In this document: positions 21,655-50,597 of the stretch, piece after piece
Position numbering within the stretch: position 1 is the stretch's first letter
Layout of the letters: every line of letters begins with the position of its first letter
Source: Shigella phage Moonfish
Reading direction: 5' to 3' (one strand)
DNA length: 64,000 nt
Sequence record: PQ613263
Made by a program: the position numbers and the translations under genes
Notes under the pieces: model-generated
The model's input: the letters and a program-made list of their open reading frames with translations, nothing else
Database searches by the model: none
Told to the model about the DNA's origin: nothing

Positions 21655-21728
21655 TGCCCACTACTGGATTTGAACCAGTGACTTTCCGATTATTAGTCGG
21701 TTGCTTTCCCCGTCTAAGCTAAGCGGGC
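21655..21728 (-). tRNA. tRNA gene (manual fold); anticodon loop CUAAUAA, anticodon AAU if numbering is canonical (Ile-type; A34 is unusual)
   Basis: Folded by hand on minus strand: acceptor GCCCGCT/AGTGGGC (one G.U), D-stem GCTT/AAGC with GG in D-loop, anticodon stem CCGA/UCGG, perfect T-arm ACTGG-TTCAAAT-CCAGT, discriminator A. Confidence 0.6.
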
Positions 21729-24067: not shown

Positions 24068-24864
24068 TATTTCTTACCGAACAGTGATTTACCACCTGCC
24101 GGAGCAGGACCAGTGTTAGCACCCGGTTTAGGAGGCAAGCCACCTTTACCATTACCACCAGCAGAACCCTTGGTCTTATCACGGGTTTTACCTTTGTTCT
24201 TTTCCAACCATGCTGTATGGAATACAGCCAGTTCTGGGGTCAGTTCTTTCTCAGCCTTCTCTGCTTCCTGAGCCTCGATGACTGTGACCAGCAGTTCCGG
24301 GTGAAACACTTTCTGAATCTCGTTTACTTCACGAGTTTCACCAGAGTCAACGTAACCGTTGTCACCTTTAACCTGCTTAGCTTCCAGAACCTTTTCCAGA
24401 GCAAAGGTAACAGTCTGACCTACCAGTTCAACTGGAACCATGACAGACTTGTTGGTTTCTGCTTTCAGGTCAAAGTCATAGACTTTAACAATCTTCTCTT
24501 CGAAGTCAGCATCCGGCAGTTCATTACCAGTAGCCATCAGCATCATGTCATTAATGACAGTGTAACCAGGCAGGAAGTATTCTTTACCGTTCTTCTCGTA
24601 AGTCGGCTTGTTGCCTTTAGCATTACCAGAAGTGAAGTACACCTGGGCACGGAACTCACCAGCATCATTTCCATCGGAACCTTTCAGGTTTTCGATGATT
24701 AACTGCATCCAGTCTGCACCGGAGTCAGCTTTACCTACGTAAGCTACTTTTACAGTACCGGTATAGATATCAGTTTCTTTGGCACCGAAGCCACCACCAC
24801 CAAGGGAGTCTTTTGCAGCTTCAACGTTTTTGGTTTTTTCTTTCAAGTTACCGAACAGTGACAT
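24067..24864 (-). CDS. single-stranded DNA-binding protein (N4-type SSB candidate)
   Basis: 265-aa ORF with Gly-rich basic C-terminus, located between resolvase and ATPase genes; size and position match N4 SSB (inference, not motif-based). Confidence 0.5.
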   Translation of the reverse strand: MSLFGNLKEKTKNVEAAKDSLGGGGFGAKETDIYTGTVKVAYVGKADSGADWMQLIIENLKGSDGNDAGEFRAQVYFTSGNAKGNKPTYEKNGKEYFLPGYTVINDMMLMATGNELPDADFEEKIVKVYDFDLKAETNKSVMVPVELVGQTVTFALEKVLEAKQVKGDNGYVDSGETREVNEIQKVFHPELLVTVIEAQEAEKAEKELTPELAVFHTAWLEKNKGKTRDKTKGSAGGNGKGGLPPKPGANTGPAPAGGKSLFGKK

Positions 24865-29107: not shown

Positions 29108-29412
29108 TATTCCCCCTTAGGAACCATGTTTGCTTGGAACTCTGGTTCAGACATTAGACCCAGATTGTTAATAGACAGATAAACAATGTCTTTTAAATCA
29201 ACTGAGGTGTCGAAACGCTGGTCCAGACTAATCTTCAAGGAATGGTTGGCACGGGCCAAATCTTTGTAGGTCACATGAGGTTCGTCAGTGAGCAGCATTG
29301 TGTTCATGGTAAGCAGGGAACCATCATCAGCTTTAGGAAGCTGGAAGATTACCTGTGCTGCTACCATCCAATGATATTTTCTGACAACGGTTTCTTTAGT
29401 ACTTTTAGTCAT
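29107..29412 (-). CDS. hypothetical protein
   Basis: 101-aa ORF, start/stop overlaps with neighbours. Confidence 0.45.
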   Translation of the reverse strand: MTKSTKETVVRKYHWMVAAQVIFQLPKADDGSLLTMNTMLLTDEPHVTYKDLARANHSLKISLDQRFDTSVDLKDIVYLSINNLGLMSEPEFQANMVPKGE

Positions 29413-30317
29413 GCGAATGCCTTTTGAATTATTTGATGAACTTCTTCAGGGGTAGCGTGATTTGGAATCTCAATCTCGTTAGCCCACGTTGGGTAGAACA
29501 AGGACAGTTCCCCACCCAAACCAACTTCTGGATGAGCAATATCAGGATGGTCTTGCCAGTTAACGGCTTCAACCAAATGCTTGTTCGTGTACTGCAAGGT
29601 ATCCATGTTGTCACGAATCATGAAGTACTGAGCATCATGAATGTGAATACTAGGACGAATATCTAACCTGAACTCACTGGCTCTAACTTTACGCATAAAC
29701 TCCGAGCCAGCACGGTTATTCAGTAGGCACCAGCTTTGCCCTAAGGCATTACCAGCAGTTCTACCTTCAGCTTCTGCTTCATATGGAGTCTTACATGTCC
29801 CACGTAAAACCTGAGCCAGTAAAGGAGTACGCACTCTCAAACCAAATGCAGCAGTTACATAACCAGTCTTGGCAGCTTCGTCTAGCTTAGCCTGAACCCA
29901 AGCATCACTAACTACATAAAGGTCGTGATAACGTTTCTCTGTGAGCTTTGCTTTCTCTTCCGAGAAGCCACAGTTCTTCATTAAGCCCATATACGTACCA
30001 CCATAGGTAAGCAGGAAGGTTGGAGCCTTCGAGTCACCTCGTAATGATTTGTATTTGTGCTGGATGGAGTTGATGGATTCAACCGTATCTACAATGTCTG
30101 GCATCTGCTCACCGAAGTAAGCATACGCACGAAGACTGTGCCCATCATAACCATCGGTATATACCTTAAGTTTCTGGGGGTCTTTCGTAGTCAATGCAGA
30201 GATACGGTCTTCAAGGCTTGCAAAGTCCAGTCCACAAAATATCCAACCTGGGGGTGCTTCGAAGCATTTCTTAATCTTCTTGGCATATTTGGAACCACTA
30301 GGGATGGTCTGTAGATT
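29409..30317 (-). CDS. DNA polymerase (family A) 3' exon: polymerase palm/fingers part
   Basis: Begins in-frame with NLQTIP..., contains GLDFASLEDRI (motif A, DYSQIELR-like), KAPTFLLTYGGTYMG (motif B) and IHIHDAQY (motif C HD); joins exon 1 to restore RLSASEP-NLQTIP. Confidence 0.8.
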   Translation of the reverse strand, partial: NLQTIPSGSKYAKKIKKCFEAPPGWIFCGLDFASLEDRISALTTKDPQKLKVYTDGYDGHSLRAYAYFGEQMPDIVDTVESINSIQHKYKSLRGDSKAPTFLLTYGGTYMGLMKNCGFSEEKAKLTEKRYHDLYVVSDAWVQAKLDEAAKTGYVTAAFGLRVRTPLLAQVLRGTCKTPYEAEAEGRTAGNALGQSWCLLNNRAGSEFMRKVRASEFRLDIRPSIHIHDAQYFMIRDNMDTLQYTNKHLVEAVNWQDHPDIAHPEVGLGGELSLFYPTWANEIEIPNHATPEEVHQIIQKAFA

Positions 30318-31023
30318 CCTGATGTTCAGCATGGGTCGTTAATCCATGCCCGTCTTTCGACTGCTGCATATTCCTATGCAGAGCAGACTATATCATCACG
30401 CCAGATAGTAAGGCGTGCCATGCGCTTCCACCCACTTGAGTGTACTCTCTTTCGAGATAGTCGTTGCACCTTTCAATGCTGCGTGTAACCGAGCGTGGTC
30501 AGGAACACTTAGCAATACAAGATTATCAAAGTCGTTGTTATACGGATTCTCATCACAATGATGCACACACCAGCCTTTTGGTATTTCACTGATATTAAGT
30601 GCCTCACATACTACCACATGGTGAGCAAAAACGTGTTTACTGCCTTTGCGTGCAGTATACCAATCCGGTTTAAGTACCATTAAGTAACCTTTACTGTCGG
30701 ATACTAAACCTTTGTAGTTATGATGGTCTTTCCCAAATTTACCTAGCATGGGGTTATTTTCCCCCAGCTTGGAGCGTCGGTAAGACTTTGCATTTCTGTT
30801 TTGACGGTATTCTTTACTGTAGTTCTCCATAATATATTTAGAGACTTTTTTGTAATTAATACCTAAACGCTTTGATATTTCTGCTTGAGATAGGTCAGTA
30901 TTCTCGTACAGAGTCTTGATATCCATCATGTGCCTCCTAAGGCAGGTATGGTTGATTTGGCTCAGGATTGCCCGGTCTGGGTTTCCCCTGAATTCACATG
31001 GTTTAAATAGCCCAATTTATTTT
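30318..31023 (-). mobile_element. probable group I intron (706 nt) inside DNA polymerase gene, carrying an HNH homing endonuclease ORF
   Basis: Interrupts a conserved Pol A motif; 5' exon ends in U, intron ends in G; GGGCU 10 nt into the intron can pair with exon-end AGCCU (P1 with U.G); frame is preserved across the junction. Confidence 0.7.
30396..30929 (-). CDS. HNH homing endonuclease (intron-encoded)
   Basis: 177 aa; own RBS TAGGAGG; N-terminal HTH-like segment; C-terminal HNH motif CVHHCDENPYNNDFDNLVLLSVPDHARLH. Confidence 0.8.
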   Translation of the reverse strand: MMDIKTLYENTDLSQAEISKRLGINYKKVSKYIMENYSKEYRQNRNAKSYRRSKLGENNPMLGKFGKDHHNYKGLVSDSKGYLMVLKPDWYTARKGSKHVFAHHVVVCEALNISEIPKGWCVHHCDENPYNNDFDNLVLLSVPDHARLHAALKGATTISKESTLKWVEAHGTPYYLA

Positions 31024-32694
31024 AGGCTCTGAAGCCGATAACCTGCCGGAGACCGTGCCTCCCAAATTGAGATTACCGAACAGATAGTGCCAGCCATCCG
31101 GTCCCGGTTGGGCGTTCCTGAAAGCTGGTATAAAGCTAGTAATAATCTTATCCACGAGCTTATAGTCGATAAGAGCATTGAGCAGTTCCTTAACATCTTC
31201 ACTCTGCGTATGTGTACGCAGTGCTTTAATAGTGTCACCATCAGTAGCTGGTTGCTTGCTCTTAGTAAGACCAAGAACTGGTAAGCCAATAAAATCAAAT
31301 AACAATTTCTGTAACTGTGGACCGGAGTTAGGATTGAACTCGATGTCACAATCAGCCAATGTTACCTGCTTCTTCTTAAGCTTGGTATTCTTATCGTCTA
31401 CCCATTCCTGACGAAGCATCAGGGTGAAATTCTTCATGAGCTTAGACTCACGAATAGTTTTCAGAGCCTGGTTCCTGTCAGTTTCCATTTCCTCAGCTAC
31501 TTGGTTAACGGTTTCCATATTCATTGGCATACCGGTTAACTGCATCTGAATAATGTCTTCACAGGCAGGTTTAAAGATGTTGTTATAAACATCCAGTTGG
31601 TCATCAGCAATGAGAGTATCCCAGTGCTTCTCGTAGGTGTACCACGTACACAGTCCATCGATTAGGTTGTAGCGTAACAATTGCTCATTAGGAATAAGAC
31701 AAATGTCTTTGATATCGTCTTGAGCATAGTTACCGGCATACTCCTGAGCCTGGTCTTTCAGACTAAGGTGATTACCAGCACAACTGTTAGTAGCCAGATA
31801 AGTGATTAACTTAGTGCAGTCCCAGTTACGTAGCATGACGTTCATGCCATACAGTAGACCTTCTGTATCAATCAGGTTATCCATGAATAACTGATAGATA
31901 AGTACATACACGTCATAGCTAATGTTGTGATACATCTGCCGTTGGGTGTACTTAATGAAGAACTCACGTAACAGGTTACGGACAATATCATTTCTGTTGA
32001 TACGCCCATAAGGTGCTTCAGTAGCTCCCTTAATTGGCTCGTAGTCCACATTAAAAGCTATGCCTTGTGTCTTACTCCAACAGAATGTAATCGTTCCTAT
32101 ACCGGCGTTATAGTGCTTTAAACCGAATGATTCGATGTCTATAGCCAATGGCTTATTCATCTCCAGCAACTGGTCTAGCCAGGCTTTAATCTCTTCGGGG
32201 GTATCTGGGTAGGCCTCAAACTCAATGATTCCCTGACCTGGTTCAGCATACTGTCCACGTATGTGGTTAAGTAGTGCATCCATACCCTGAGCAATTTTAG
32301 CTCTCACTACAGGTGGGTCATAAAAGACCTGTCTGTAGTTAGGCGTATAGATAACCTTCTGCTTACCCCATACTGAGTCACAAACGTAGCCGAGGTTGGC
32401 CTCTGCTTTAGCTTCTTTAGTCAGTATTTTAAAGTAATCAGAATCGGTACAGATGACGTACTGAGTTTCTGCATCATCCAGTACTTGTTGCAGTTCCTGC
32501 TGTATGAACTCCTTAATCTCCTTTGCAGGAGTCTTCTTTTTGCCGGGGGCAGAGTGAAGTTCAAGGAAGATAAAATCTTCCATGCTTAGGTCATATGGCA
32601 GCAGGTAGGTTTTAATCATCTCCTCCCTTCGGATTTGATGACCGAGGATAGCAATAGGATATTTACCCGTATCCTGAGAGGTGATGTAACGCAT
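31024..32694 (-). CDS. DNA polymerase (family A) 5' exon: 3'-5' exonuclease and N-terminal polymerase part
   Basis: Contains Exo I LAIDIESF; ends ...TVSGRLSASEP (then KINWAI* if unspliced), i.e. truncated in the middle of the conserved RLSSSDPNLQNIP motif. Confidence 0.8.
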
Positions 32695-47828: not shown

Positions 47829-47861
47829 TTAACTTAATGCATAATCCGTTTCAAGAATGTC
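47829..47861 (-). CDS. RNAP II large subunit, 3' mini-exon encoding the C-terminal foot (D)ILETDYALS
   Basis: Closely resembles the T7 RNAP C-terminus RDILESDFAFA; exact 3' junction inferred. Confidence 0.55.
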   Translation of the reverse strand, partial: DILETDYALS

Positions 47862-48988
47862 CTGCCAGAGGCTGTCATCCAGCTTACCCGCAGAGAACTC
47901 TTGTCCCAGTACCTGAGATAGGATGAAGCCCAGCAAGTCACTCTTAGCAATGTCAGATAGAATCTGATTGTACTGACGACGTAGGTCATTACCATAGTTA
48001 GGATGACAACGAAAACCATTAGTTAAACGAGTCGTTAGCTCGCCCTTACCTTCCATGATTAACATGAAAGCCATATGTAGCATCTGCTTGTTTACGAGCA
48101 AGCATTGCCTCCTCAAGTGTGTCGTACGTACCCAGACCGATCTGTTTGCGATTGACTGTGATGTGTGCCTGAAATCTACCAGAAGGCAGTATTCTCACAC
48201 CGTTCACTTTGCTTGAAGTATTACTAGATAAACTCATATTCATCTGGTTCTGTCTGCTGGTTACATTTCTCAAATTAGACCAACGATTGTCGTTTCTAGT
48301 ATGATTGATGTGGTCCACCTGGTTAGGTGTTTCCCCAGTTTCCATTATCCAGATTATTCGATGTAGTAAGTACTCTTTGCGGCCCAGGCTAACGGATAGA
48401 TACCCTTCTTTGTGAGGATACCCCACAATTGTTCCGGCTAACCCACTGGCAGAGTCATAACGATGAGTCACTAGCCCACTATCCCTGTCATACCTTAAAA
48501 CCTTCTGCAAAGATTCTTGGGTAATATTACCCAAGTTTATTATTAGGTTTTTACAGGTAGAGCATAGATGACCTATTGGACTCTTTCTAGCATCATAGAA
48601 GTTACAAACAAACTCATTAGAGCATTGCTTGCAACTACAGATAGCTGTGTACTTACCAGTTTTACGTAATATTTGAGAGTTATCTAACATATGGATTCCT
48701 TAGTAATTTTGCATACAATTTCAGATTGTATCCTAACCAAGGAAGTAAGTCTCCAATTTTCACTGGAGTATCGGACTATATCATCACCCACTAATCAGTG
48801 GGGCAAGGCGCTTGGGTGGTCACTTGACTCACCTACTCTACTCACATACGAAATGCTTTCGATAGTCTCTGAACCTTCCCTCATAGAGGGCTTGGCTGCT
48901 GATTGGCATATCCATAGGACTTAGCTTTCCAGCAATTCACCTTGTTTTCGACACGGATTACTCCGTGAAGGATCATTTATGTTTAATC
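47862..48988 (-). mobile_element. probable group I intron (~1.1 kb) in RNAP II large-subunit gene, carrying an HNH-AP2 endonuclease ORF
   Basis: Upstream ORF stops right after ...VLTVHD, 9-10 codons short of a T7-like C-terminus that is encoded 1.1 kb downstream in frame-compatible position; splice after caU with intron ending caG satisfies U/G group I rules. Confidence 0.55.
48046..48690 (-). CDS. HNH endonuclease with AP2 DNA-binding domain (intron-encoded)
   Basis: 214 aa; own AAGGAA RBS; HNH_3-like GYLSVSL...HRIIWIMETGETPNQVDHINHTRNDNRWSNLR; C-terminal AP2-like GVRILPSGRFQAHI...GTYDTLEEA. Confidence 0.8.
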   Translation of the reverse strand: MLDNSQILRKTGKYTAICSCKQCSNEFVCNFYDARKSPIGHLCSTCKNLIINLGNITQESLQKVLRYDRDSGLVTHRYDSASGLAGTIVGYPHKEGYLSVSLGRKEYLLHRIIWIMETGETPNQVDHINHTRNDNRWSNLRNVTSRQNQMNMSLSSNTSSKVNGVRILPSGRFQAHITVNRKQIGLGTYDTLEEAMLARKQADATYGFHVNHGR

Positions 48989-50014
48989 ATGTACAGTCAA
49001 TACAGGGAATGGCTTCTTAGGTAAAGTGTCCAGCATGTCTGCTACTACCTGACGGTCAACCATAGCAATAGTGCCTGGGTCGAGATAGTCGATAATAGAC
49101 ATAGATAAGAATCCAGACTTCTCGTAGTGTTCCCACAAGGTCTGTACCATTTCCATGTTACCTTCAATCTCCCCATACTCTGCTGGGCCTGTGTCGCAGA
49201 GTTCACGAACAGCAGCAACCAGGTTAGCATCGAAGTTACAACGACGCAGCATCTCGCGTACCACCATCCCATCAATAGAGTGGGTGATGTTAGCAGAGAG
49301 CATACGAGTCTTCTCTTCAGTACCCTGAACCATGCGGGTAATGTCGAATGGTTTACCTAAGAAGTTAACAGTCTGTACTTCTGGAACCATGACCTTAATG
49401 ACGGCATGGAAGTTGTCAGACAATACCCATACGTAACGGTTAGCATCCGGGTTACCACATTGCAGTAAGAACTTGTTCAATGCCCAAGGCCCACTAGCAA
49501 CAGTTTCCATTACATTCTCAAAAGTCTTGAGACGGATACCCTCACCGAATACTTCTTTAGGCTTAGCTTCTGAACCGTAGAATGCAGTCATAACTGCCTG
49601 CTTAGTGTCACTACGCTTAATACGAGATGCTTCACCAAGGATGTCCAACATCTTGTGATAGATAACTGTATAAGCATCACGACGTAATGGCTTACCGTTT
49701 TCACCCATGTAGTTAACTACGTTACACAGTTCAGCAGCAGAACGGTCACCAGTCAGGCAAGCCAGTAACTGCAAGCCTGATGATGTAGCATCCAGAGCTA
49801 CGGCATAGCCAATAGGCTTACCGGCTTTCATATCTTTCCATGCGTTTACACCTGCATAGAACAATGCGGATTCTTCAGCTTCATCTACCAGATTAAGCAG
49901 GTTAGCTTCGTTTTCATCGAACCAGCTAATACGTTCATCCCATGTTTTCTTATCCAGACCCATGTTATTCGCAATATCAATCTTTAAATATTCTTTCGCT
50001 GTGAAAAGCTGCAT
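48989..50014 (-). CDS. phage RNAP II large subunit (N4 gp16-like, T7-like catalytic half), 5' exon
   Basis: LDATSSGLQLLA (T7 motif A FDGSCSGIQHFSA), KQAVMTAFYGS (motif B), ITHSIDG (T7 H784 region), RELCDTG (motif C). Confidence 0.8.
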
Positions 50015-50015
50015 C

Positions 50016-50597
50016 TTAAGCTCCTAGTTTCCACGTATAGCCATATGCTTGTGCATATGTACCAATAATTGATTGTTTAATGTTTGATGGTATTCCATTT
50101 ACACTGCGTGCTGCTGCACTCAGTGAATGGAATGTCTGGATGTAAATACCATCCAGTGTGTATTGCTCTACAGGGATAGCAGATTTGGTATTAATACCGT
50201 TGATTGCATCAGAGTAATACCTTCTTACATTGGCGTTTACCGTAACAACACGAATGTTATCCAGTGAGTAACCTTTATAGTCATCCAGCCTGTCAAGGCT
50301 TGGCTTCAGGTTGGTTGGGTAATCCTCTATTACCCATTTATCATACAGAGTGTGAAACTCTTTCTTTGATAACACCCATTGTTCTAGTTCCTCTTTAGTA
50401 AAAGTAACAGGATTAAACCCTTTCTTCTTGGTTCTGCTTACGCAACCGGAGTACATTTGATTAATGACTCCTTGTTTGGAATGGATAAAACGTTTCACAC
50501 AGTCTTTACAGTCTGCTCTTACACCCTGTTTACCTGTGGACTGTTTATTGAACATGTCCAGAGGCAAGTTCTGCTTACATACTGAACATGTCTTCAT
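50016..50597 (-). CDS. homing-endonuclease-like protein (Cys4 zinc ribbon + C-terminal NUMOD1-like DNA-binding motif), free-standing between RNAP II subunit genes
   Basis: 193 aa; CSVCK...CKDC; C-terminal FHSLSAAARSVNGIPSNIKQSI...GYTWK resembles DNA-binding tails of GIY-YIG/HNH homing endonucleases; no catalytic motif identified. Confidence 0.45.
   Translation of the reverse strand: MKTCSVCKQNLPLDMFNKQSTGKQGVRADCKDCVKRFIHSKQGVINQMYSGCVSRTKKKGFNPVTFTKEELEQWVLSKKEFHTLYDKWVIEDYPTNLKPSLDRLDDYKGYSLDNIRVVTVNANVRRYYSDAINGINTKSAIPVEQYTLDGIYIQTFHSLSAAARSVNGIPSNIKQSIIGTYAQAYGYTWKLGA

Follow-up and report, generated by a model that had tools for sequence, protein, structure and literature searches.

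Main

The closest described counterpart of the element studied here is carried by Escherichia phages vB_EcoP_PhAPEC5 and vB_EcoP_PhAPEC7 (KF192075, KF562340), in the same gene, at the same position and in the same genus as in the window, by which we mean the whole 64,000-nt stretch of Shigella phage Moonfish DNA that was analysed (PQ613263). The GenBank record of PhAPEC5 speaks of 'DNAP split by an intron' and of an 'HNH endonuclease inducing intron mobility', so the DNA polymerase (DNAP) intron is already known in these two phages, and its family has been the subject of experiments. The note in that record gives 672 bp, roughly the gap between coding sequences, whereas the splice boundaries give 706 nt (record positions 24146-24851), and the published figure should be corrected to this value. 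A search of the accessible literature found no paper that pairs PhAPEC5 with an intron or gives the intron's structure or splicing, and Schitoviridae, Gamaleyavirus, PhAPEC and N4-like were not found in the accessible part of the supplement to a phage-intron catalogue that lists phiL7 (PMC11878797).

Experimental work exists for the cyanophage Pf-WMP3, whose intron lies at the identical site, after the Pro codon at E. coli Pol I position 674, and has recognisably the same core sequence. In vivo splicing and in vitro self-splicing have been reported for it, and the shared architecture comprises subgroup IA2, no P2, GUA between P7.1 and P7.2, and an ORF that opens in P6a and continues through P7 (PMC3428280). 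Pf-WMP3 differs in host and phage family, its intron has no P9.1/P9.2 extension and it starts UAA where that of the window starts AAAAUAAAU. Splicing and nicking have been measured for Pf-WMP3.

More distant comparisons come from three groups. The intron of Xanthomonas phage phiL7 and those of its Autographiviridae relatives PS3, phiB1_1 and BF25/12 have ribozymes with 66–70% nucleotide identity over 90–97% of the intron; phiL7-type introns are placed 6 nt downstream of the window site, after PNL, at position 676 (PMC3428280), and their guide, GAGGUUG, matches that site. The DNAP introns of SPO1, SP82 and Bastille encode nicking HNH enzymes (I-HmuI, I-HmuII and I-BasI) and occupy the homologous position 674 (PMC3428280). 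No sequence similarity to these introns or enzymes was found in the searches run, and on sequence comparison this site appears to have been occupied by separate intron and endonuclease lineages. The introns of the T7-like phages PhiI and W31, also IA2 and in family-A polymerases, served as the template when the structure of the Pf-WMP3 intron was modelled but sit at position 881 (motif C), in contrast to 674 in the window (PMC3428280). The locus described here is a further case of a known theme, in which mobile group I introns with nicking HNH enzymes target the part of phage family-A polymerases that is most strongly conserved.

Here, we analyse the insert in the DNAP gene of the window, which belongs to a G7C-like coliphage (Gamaleyavirus, Schitoviridae), and conclude with a probability of about 93% that it is a mobile IA2 group I intron, spliced and homing as proposed below.

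Results

The window contains two polymerase ORFs on the minus strand, separated by a third of 177 aa (30929..30396). In the ORF list, the upstream one (32694..31003, 563 aa) ends in ...GRLSASEPKINWAI*, and the downstream one (30332..29409, 307 aa) starts MLNIRNLQTIPSGS and continues to ...GLDFASLEDRI. The letters at the splice sites are ...TCAGAGCCT|AAAATAAATTGGGCT...ACATCAGG|AATCTACAGACC, with T31024, A31023, G30318 and A30317. A preliminary description of this DNA had claimed that excising 30318-31023 joins the polymerase in frame, and this holds exact to the base: removal of 31023..30318 (706 nt, minus strand) leaves a 2580-nt ORF of 859 aa with a single terminal stop and the junction ...TCAGAGCCT-AATCTACAG..., and gp39 of phage G7C, which is uninterrupted, is colinear with the product and shows no gaps against it; the junction reads RLSASEP-NLQTIP. 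The intron-less insertion site in G7C gp39 is GGCTTCAGAGCCA|AATCTACAAACA. Comparison with intron-less homologues, recommended in the same description, maps the site, given that in Gamaleyaviruses lacking the intron the query match falls into two segments totalling exactly 2580 nt (3286 - 706).

Pfam gives one DNA_pol_A match for the spliced product (residues 433-752), which crosses the junction 557/558 and places the protein in family A. The insert interrupts the conserved segment RLSSxDP|NLQNIP, which precedes motif A, between the P and N codons of RLSASEP|NLQTIP, and its site corresponds to position 674 of E. coli Pol I. In Taq/Klenow the counterpart of the junction peptide by alignment is GRLSSSDPNLQNIP, and the earlier statement that a family-A polymerase gene is split within a conserved motif is thereby borne out. 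Both exons are intact and 92–93% identical to functional homologues.

Because the intron begins AA.. and exon 2 begins AA.., DNA comparison alone allows the boundary to slide by 0, 1 or 2 nt. Only 31024|31023 / 30318|30317 yields both an exon-end U and an intron-end G, which is also the choice that had been made beforehand, together with a P1 of GGGCU and AGCCU that includes a U.G pair. The U.G pair at the exon end and the intron-terminal G are both retained in 14/14 family members. The coordinates of all features are collected in Table 1.

Table 1 Features of the interrupted DNA polymerase gene in window coordinates
Feature	Position	Strand	Description	Basis
DNA polymerase exon 1	31024..32694	-	codons 1-557, with ...GRLSASEP at the end and U as final base	ORF list and G7C gp39 colinearity after in-silico splicing
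DNA polymerase exon 2	29409..30317	-	codons 558-859, starts NLQTIPSGS..., holds motifs A to C	
Group I intron, subgroup IA2	30318..31023	-	706 nt; first base A31023, omega-G 30318	size difference, U/G rule, covariation, ORF-less homologues
P1 hairpin	31009..31028	-	exon AGCCU 31028..31024 with guide GGGCU 31013..31009, 10-nt loop	P1/P10 table and MFE fold
P10	31016..31014 with 30317..30315	-	AUU with AAU (first 3 nt of exon 2)	P1/P10 table
5' core half	30960..31001	-	P3 5' strand CCAUGUG, J3/4, P4 UCAGGG/UCCUGA, P5 CCC/GGG, P6 5' strand GC	Rfam, structure counts, MFE
P6a hairpin	30923..30951	-	buries AGGAGG (30938..30933), pairs second AUG of AUGAUG start	predicted fold and compensatory changes
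Intron-encoded HNH homing endonuclease	30396..30929	-	177 aa, N-terminal HTH, C-terminal HNH	Pfam, I-PfoP3I homology
3' core half	30318..30469	-	P6' GU, J6/7, P7 GACUA, P7.1, GUA, P7.2, P3' CGCAUGG, P8 CACGCC/GGCGUG, J8/7, P7' UAGUC, P9 (GGAA loop), P9.1, P9.2, omega-G	Rfam E-value mode, covariation, MFE

The insert has the full set of group I core elements, with the guide at intron nt 11-15 and no P2. The additional helices P7.1 and P7.2 joined by G-U-A are the hallmarks of IA2 (PMC3428280), and in the window intron P7.1 (UCUC-GAAA-GAGA) leads through a GUA linker to P7.2 (CACUC-AAGU-GGGUG), both helices showing covariation. On 14 homologues, 98.8% of cells are paired across 54 pairs in 11 helices, compared with 28–42% for register-shifted controls, and 0/500 shuffles were as good. 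Compensatory changes, with both sides altered, occur in 27 of the 54 pairs. P7 is invariant across the homologues and hence uninformative for covariation, yet intact. No helix is disrupted in the window copy, in which the GACUA/UAGUC, J8/7 and J6/7 strings are identical to those of the relatives; P1 (5 bp), P10 (3 bp) and P5 (3 bp) are short. The minimum free energy (MFE) fold of the ORF-deleted intron, as an independent line, recovers P1, P3–P6, P7.1, P7.2, P8, P9 and P9.2 (z=-4.15).

At the gathering score of RF00028 (50 bits), a search of the whole window did not match the DNAP intron. In E-value mode the intact copy gives only partial or chimeric matches, of 33 bits (E=1.8e-6) for the 3' half and 14 bits for the P4–P6 domain, and the 5' core half is a partial match to model positions 60-141. 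The two core halves are 487 nt apart with the ORF in the intervening sequence, and the window copy falls below the gathering score probably because the ORF inside P6 splits the core. BLASTN detects homologues without the ORF in four Xanthomonas phages (Valrath, MK21, CP1 and phiXacJX1), and these score 62–70 bits against the same model. The covariance-model search that the preliminary description had called for finds a group I core, in two halves and in E-value mode, and the part that fails is detection of the intact copy at the gathering score. The proposal of a probable group I intron is upheld by the full core, the strong covariation and the ORF-less relatives above the Rfam threshold.

The ORF within the intron is intact, begins in P6a and extends through P8, such that its last ~75 nt double as P6', P7, P7.1, P7.2, P3' and P8. 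Pfam HNH_3 matches residues 104-147 at 31.5 bits (cut-off 24.8), and the N-terminal HTH is weak. The protein is 45% identical over 159 aa to I-PfoP3I, the product of Pf-WMP3 ORF13 (E=3e-44) and a characterised nicking homing endonuclease. Identity to the ORFs in the introns of phiL7, PS3 and Acinetobacter phages is 59–67% (59–66% for phiL7 and its Autographiviridae relatives). Both ribozyme and enzyme are homologous to experimentally studied members. Searched against PDB sequences, the HNH protein gave a single weak, unrelated match, and I-HmuI was absent. The insert had been described as encoding an HNH endonuclease with its own ribosome-binding site (RBS). The endonuclease is confirmed and an AGGAGG is present, 3 nt before the first and 6 nt before the second ATG of ATGATG, but a conserved hairpin takes in both the RBS and the start-codon region. 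A hairpin of this two-tier form is predicted for 10 ORF-bearing homologues, among which paired bases change in a compensatory manner (UGCCU/AGGCA, CACCU/AGGUG and CGCCU/AGGCG, for instance). With this region bound in a hairpin, expression of the endonuclease is probably low or delayed.

The empty allele is common: of the 108 phage records that matched, the majority have no insert, and PhAPEC5 and PhAPEC7 are the sole carriers (4 records with RefSeq duplicates). Over the full 706 nt their intron has 96% identity to that of the window, and their endonuclease 97%, compared with 92% for the surrounding exons. The window phage is different from PhAPEC5, given that the exons are ~8% divergent. In a sliding-window search for a co-conversion tract, exon divergence relative to G7C and PhAPEC5 shows a mild rise 3' of the junction and a larger peak 250 nt on. 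The insertions in the related phages ST4 and SP5M were ruled out as the same intron, as they occupy other sites in the same gene and are ORF-bearing with no group I signal.

The intron lineage spans four phage groups (Schitoviridae, Autographiviridae, the cyanophage and Xanthomonas phages) and three DNAP sites (674, 676 and motif B), and the guide sequence co-varies with the exon, matched to each of these sites.

Discussion

We infer splicing activity, endonuclease specificity and translational control in this phage along the following lines. In the pre-mRNA, the exon end AGCCU would pair with the guide GGGCU to form P1, and an exogenous guanosine bound in P7 would attack 3' of the exon-end U. 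The terminal G30318 would next occupy the same P7 site while the guide aligns exon 2 through P10 (AAU/AUU), and ligation of the exons would produce the mRNA for an intact 859-aa polymerase. By analogy with I-PfoP3I, the enzyme may nick, close to the insertion site, the empty polymerase allele of a relative infecting the same cell, after which recombinational repair would copy the intron into the nicked allele.

Inteins likewise carry homing endonucleases and are found at conserved motifs of polymerases, and one rival reading is an intein or another protein-level intervening sequence removed post-translationally. The reading frames refute it: the length of 706 nt is not divisible by 3, the unspliced exon-1 frame runs into a stop about 7-8 codons into the insert (KINWAI*), and the endonuclease is in a separate frame with its own start codon. 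A split polymerase is also conceivable, in which no RNA splicing occurs, the HNH gene is free-standing and polypeptides of 563 aa and 307 aa assemble into an active enzyme. The T4-like phage Aeh1, with its split gp43A and gp43B, is a precedent for a split polymerase. 'Fractured genes' are listed in PMC2677866, the gene calls of PhAPEC5 comprise two DNAP coding sequences and an HNH coding sequence, an in-frame ATG at 30332 is found 15 nt before exon 2, and the ST4 and SP5M insertions are ORF-bearing and elsewhere in the gene without a group I signal. However, that ATG is the sole one in frame, lies within P9.2 and has no Shine-Dalgarno sequence upstream, and a free-standing gene has no need of a complete, covarying ribozyme core. 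The break, moreover, falls inside the contiguous conserved RLSxSxP|NLQxIP and is flanked exactly as the U...G rule prescribes, and splicing has been reported for the homologous intron that occupies this site (PMC3428280). We therefore consider a split polymerase very improbable.

An equally slim chance is given to a decayed or splicing-defective relic, with the polymerase a pseudogene or the assembly from a defective phage. The window copy does score below the Rfam gathering threshold, and its P1, P5 and P10 are short. Against this, all helices are intact with the same invariant core strings as in the relatives, and neither the HNH ORF nor the exons, at the identities to functional homologues given above, show any break. 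The same element is carried by isolated phages, PhAPEC5 and PhAPEC7, and their records show one matching place each and no second DNAP match. A functional, self-spliced group I intron hence remains the preferred reading, and the gene should be annotated as one spliced 859-aa polymerase, join(32694..31024, 30317..29409) on the minus strand, instead of two 'DNA polymerase' fragments.

The added value of this analysis is modest and lies in the family picture, that is, one lineage in four phage groups at three sites with matching guides and a buried endonuclease start. Two HNH-bearing group I introns, independent of one another, are present in this phage; each interrupts the gene of an essential polymerase within or next to a catalytic motif, and most sister Gamaleyaviruses have neither. 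A role in inter-phage competition has been reported for the endonuclease of the PhiPA3 RNAP intron (PMC12908238). It is conceivable, though on balance we doubt it, that the introns are weapons in competition between co-infecting G7C-like phages, more than passengers; if so, the hops between sites would show joint re-targeting of intron and endonuclease.

The second group I intron, at 48984..48017 in the RNAP2 gene, is HNH-bearing and located inside the 'HD' of motif C. The Rfam search of the window at the gathering threshold found this other intron (48994..48751) and a tRNA.

Polymerase gene and insert boundaries

The phage is a Gamaleyavirus (G7C-like, N4-related, Schitoviridae) with ~90% identity to its closest database relatives. 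Genes around the DNA polymerase (DNAP) locus run on the minus strand, on which 32694..29409 is occupied by three ORFs according to the ORF list. The preliminary description held that the gene is split by a 706-nt insert and that excision restores the frame, and this observation is confirmed. Written with a slash at each boundary, the junctions read 5' ...TCAGAGCCT/AAAATAAATTGGGCT... and 3' ...GAACATCAGG/AATCTACAGACC..., and in silico removal of the insert leaves a 2580-nt ORF with one stop, the terminal one. The 859-aa product is colinear and gap-free with G7C gp39, the uninterrupted DNAP used as reference, and its single Pfam DNA_pol_A match (residues 433–752) crosses the exon junction at codons 557/558. 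No gaps are needed, either, to align the junction peptide with Taq and Klenow GRLSSSDPNLQNIP...LDYSQIELR. Most relatives lack the insert: the 3286-nt query aligns with them as two pieces whose combined span is exactly 2580 nt, and the insert is therefore polymorphic for presence or absence, with a length difference of exactly 706 nt. On DNA comparison alone the insert start is ambiguous by 0–2 nt; a U-ending 5' exon with a G-ending insert is obtained only with the boundaries originally chosen, where T31024 closes the exon and G30318 the insert. The Pro codon at the junction is CCA in the intron-less G7C allele and CCT in both intron-bearing alleles, and the U for the P1 wobble pair is therefore available only where the intron is present.

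Features of the polymerase locus, of the rest of the window and of related loci
Feature	Position	Strand	Description
DNAP upstream ORF	32694..31003	-	563 aa, C-terminal end ...GTVSGRLSASEPKINWAI, then stop
DNAP intron	31023..30318	-	706 nt
P6a hairpin	30923-30951	-	two tiers, predicted
Intron ORF	30929..30396	-	177 aa
Last ~25 codons of intron ORF	30396-30470	-	read from P6', J6/7, P7, P7.1, P7.2, P3', P8
DNAP downstream ORF	30332..29409	-	307 aa, N-terminal start MLNIRNLQTIPSGS...GLDFASLEDRI
tRNA gene	21655-21728	-	RF00005, 63.8 bits
RNAP2 exons	48985-50014 and 47829-48016	-
RNAP2 intron	48984..48017	-	968 nt
RNAP2 intron, RF00028 match	48994..48751		91 bits, E=5e-22
RNAP2 intron ORF	48690..48046		214 aa, HNH_3 + AP2 domain
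Upstream ORF	50016-50597	-	193 aa
ST4 DNAP insertion	~1842-2684 of locus		843 nt after G7C nt 1739 (APP/GW, just upstream of motif A)
SP5M DNAP insertion	~1745-2446 of locus		~695 nt near nt 1829-1836 (KVY/TDGY)

Group I ribozyme core

The interpretation of the insert as a group I intron with an HNH endonuclease gene is supported, and the covariance-model search proposed as a check gave partial matches. In a whole-window scan at the gathering score of the Rfam group I model RF00028 (50 bits), which reported the other intron in the window, the DNAP insert was not reported; E-value mode gives 33 bits (E=1.8e-6) for its 3' part and 14 bits for the true P4-P6 domain. The score is low because the endonuclease ORF lies inside P6 and places the core halves 487 nt apart, and homologues were therefore used to test the structure. 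The P6 loop and ORF were cut from 14 intron copies, which were then aligned, and a secondary structure comprising P3, P4, P5, P6, P7 (pseudoknot), P7.1, P7.2, P8, P9, P9.1 and P9.2 was written by hand from the window sequence. Standard pairs fill 98.8% of 749 cells, a percentage that is partly circular, as one of the aligned sequences was the source of the structure; the count of compensatory pairs escapes this circularity, with changes on both sides at 27 of 54 pairs. These values were matched by 0 of 500 shuffles, and sliding the 3' partners by 1–3 columns reduces pairing to 28–42%. One P3 position shows four pair types, and covariation is seen in five of the six P8 pairs. When the window intron was folded without its ORF, by unconstrained minimum free energy, P1, P3-P6, P7.1, P7.2, P8, P9 and P9.2 were recovered independently (z=-4.15). 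P2 is absent, P7.1 and P7.2 are linked by G-U-A and the ORF spans P6a-P7, as in DNAP introns of subgroup IA2 (PMC3428280).

The predicted pairing of the exon end AGCCU with the guide GGGCU, including U.G, also held: P1 has a 10-nt loop, P10 pairs AAU with AUU, and in the family comparison the guide matches the exon at three insertion sites (AGCCU with GGGCU, CAACCUU with GAGGUUG, CCAGCGU with GCGCUGG), which argues strongly for a real P1.

Distribution of the intron lineage

One intron and endonuclease lineage was found at three DNAP sites. In the window, query residue 26 aligns with Klenow chain residue 340, and P37 accordingly with chain residue 351; as Klenow starts at residue 324, the P/N junction falls at P674. 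This site, after P, is shared by PhAPEC5, Shigella B2, Acinetobacter pB3074, Klebsiella RCIP0039, PPWS1 and Pf-WMP3, while the site after PNL (676) is used in Valrath, phiL7, PS3, phiB1_1 and BF25/12, and that in motif B (FQR/AYG) by the ORF-less copies of MK21, CP1 and phiXacJX1. Published DNAP intron sites, in E. coli Pol I numbering, are 674 (SPO1, SP82, Bastille, Pf-WMP3), 676 (phiL7) and 881 (PhiI, W31) (PMC3428280).

A distant BLASTN search with the 706-nt intron matched 326 phage records. Copies with an ORF occur in phages of Acinetobacter, Providencia, Pseudomonas, Dickeya, Pectobacterium, Klebsiella, Xanthomonas (phiL7) and Shigella (B2, also N4-like), and the CDSs annotated next to them are DNA polymerase genes. 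The ORF-less copies of the Xanthomonas phages Valrath, MK21, CP1 and phiXacJX1 (272–321 nt) score 62–70 bits, above the Rfam gathering threshold.

The window DNAP intron is ordinary and already known, being the orthologue of the annotated intron in the sister phages PhAPEC5 and PhAPEC7, both of which carry a whole 706-nt copy 96% identical to it. The PhAPEC5 GenBank record gives 'DNAP split by an intron of 672bp' and 'putative HNH endonuclease inducing intron mobility', and the PhAPEC7 record uses the same endonuclease product name; the annotated 672 bp approximates the inter-CDS gap, whereas splice-site rules give 706 nt. Identity to PhAPEC5 is 96.2% in the intron and 92.2% in the exons (201 differences in 2580 nt), which would fit recent horizontal spread or stronger constraint; sliding-window divergence around the junction gave no clear signal of a co-conversion tract. 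The intron also belongs to an intron and endonuclease family that has been characterised by experiment. The intron of cyanophage Pf-WMP3 (5' ...TCATCTAAGCCT/TAACATGTAGGGCTT...GTGAACTCAGGG...; 3' ...GCAACGACTATCTCGAAAGAGAGTA...GATATAGTCT...AAAGG/AACATCCAACAG) shares the insertion site and has a core that is recognisably the same.

Endonuclease ORF

The 177-aa product matches Pfam HNH_3 above the curated cut-off, has a weak N-terminal helix-turn-helix, and shows 97% identity to the PhAPEC5 protein, 59–67% to intron ORFs of phiL7, PS3 and Acinetobacter phages and 45% (E=3e-44) to I-PfoP3I of Pf-WMP3, an enzyme reported to nick the coding strand at a point 4 nt upstream of its intron's insertion site (PMC3428280). 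The window protein's C-terminal ...ATTISKES..., conserved even in I-PfoP3I, is read from P7/P7.1 of the core (GCAACGACUAUCUCGAAAGAGAGU) and its stop codon lies within the P8 3' strand, so the 3' end of the gene is dual-coding and the stretch is under dual constraint. The ORF was said to have its own ribosome-binding site, and AGGAGG does precede its ATGATG start, but the P6a hairpin is predicted to pair both this Shine-Dalgarno sequence and the second AUG. All 10 ORF-bearing homologues examined are predicted to form this hairpin, with compensatory changes, which suggests that endonuclease translation may be restrained.

Alternative readings

An intein is ruled out by the reading frames. A split polymerase that works without splicing is conceivable in principle, but it leaves a fully conserved, covarying ribozyme unexplained, and the second half lacks initiation signals, its ATG lying inside P9.2. 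That the intron is dead is unlikely, given that all helices and invariant core strings are intact in the window copy and that PhAPEC5 and PhAPEC7, which are isolated phages, have the element in their sole DNAP match (one place per record). Splicing and endonuclease activity in the phage studied here are inferred.

Other insertions and genes

Sister Gamaleyaviruses ST4 and SP5M have ORF-bearing insertions at other sites of the same DNAP gene. The SP5M ORF carries HNH_3 and NUMOD4 and the ST4 ORF has no Pfam match; at E<=0.01 Rfam finds no sign of a group I intron in either insertion, and the last base of the ST4 5' exon is not U. These loci could be split genes that involve no intron, or could hold intervening sequences of a different class.

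The tRNA gene, from the whole-window scan, is unrelated to the DNAP intron. A second HNH-bearing group I intron interrupts the T7-like RNAP2 subunit gene; alignment with the intron-less ECBP1 gene (...GTA CAT GAT T/AAACAT...ACTAATG/GT TTT CGT) places it directly past the motif-C His-Asp ('HD') codons, one base into the next codon, with T ending the 5' exon and G the insert. Its ORF lies 3' of the ribozyme core rather than in P6, and in the phage collection searched the insert is common to phage ZQ2 only. Directly upstream of RNAP2 exon 1, the 193-aa ORF has a Cys-rich N terminus (CSVCKQ...CKDCVKRF) and resembles a further free-standing gene of the endonuclease type.
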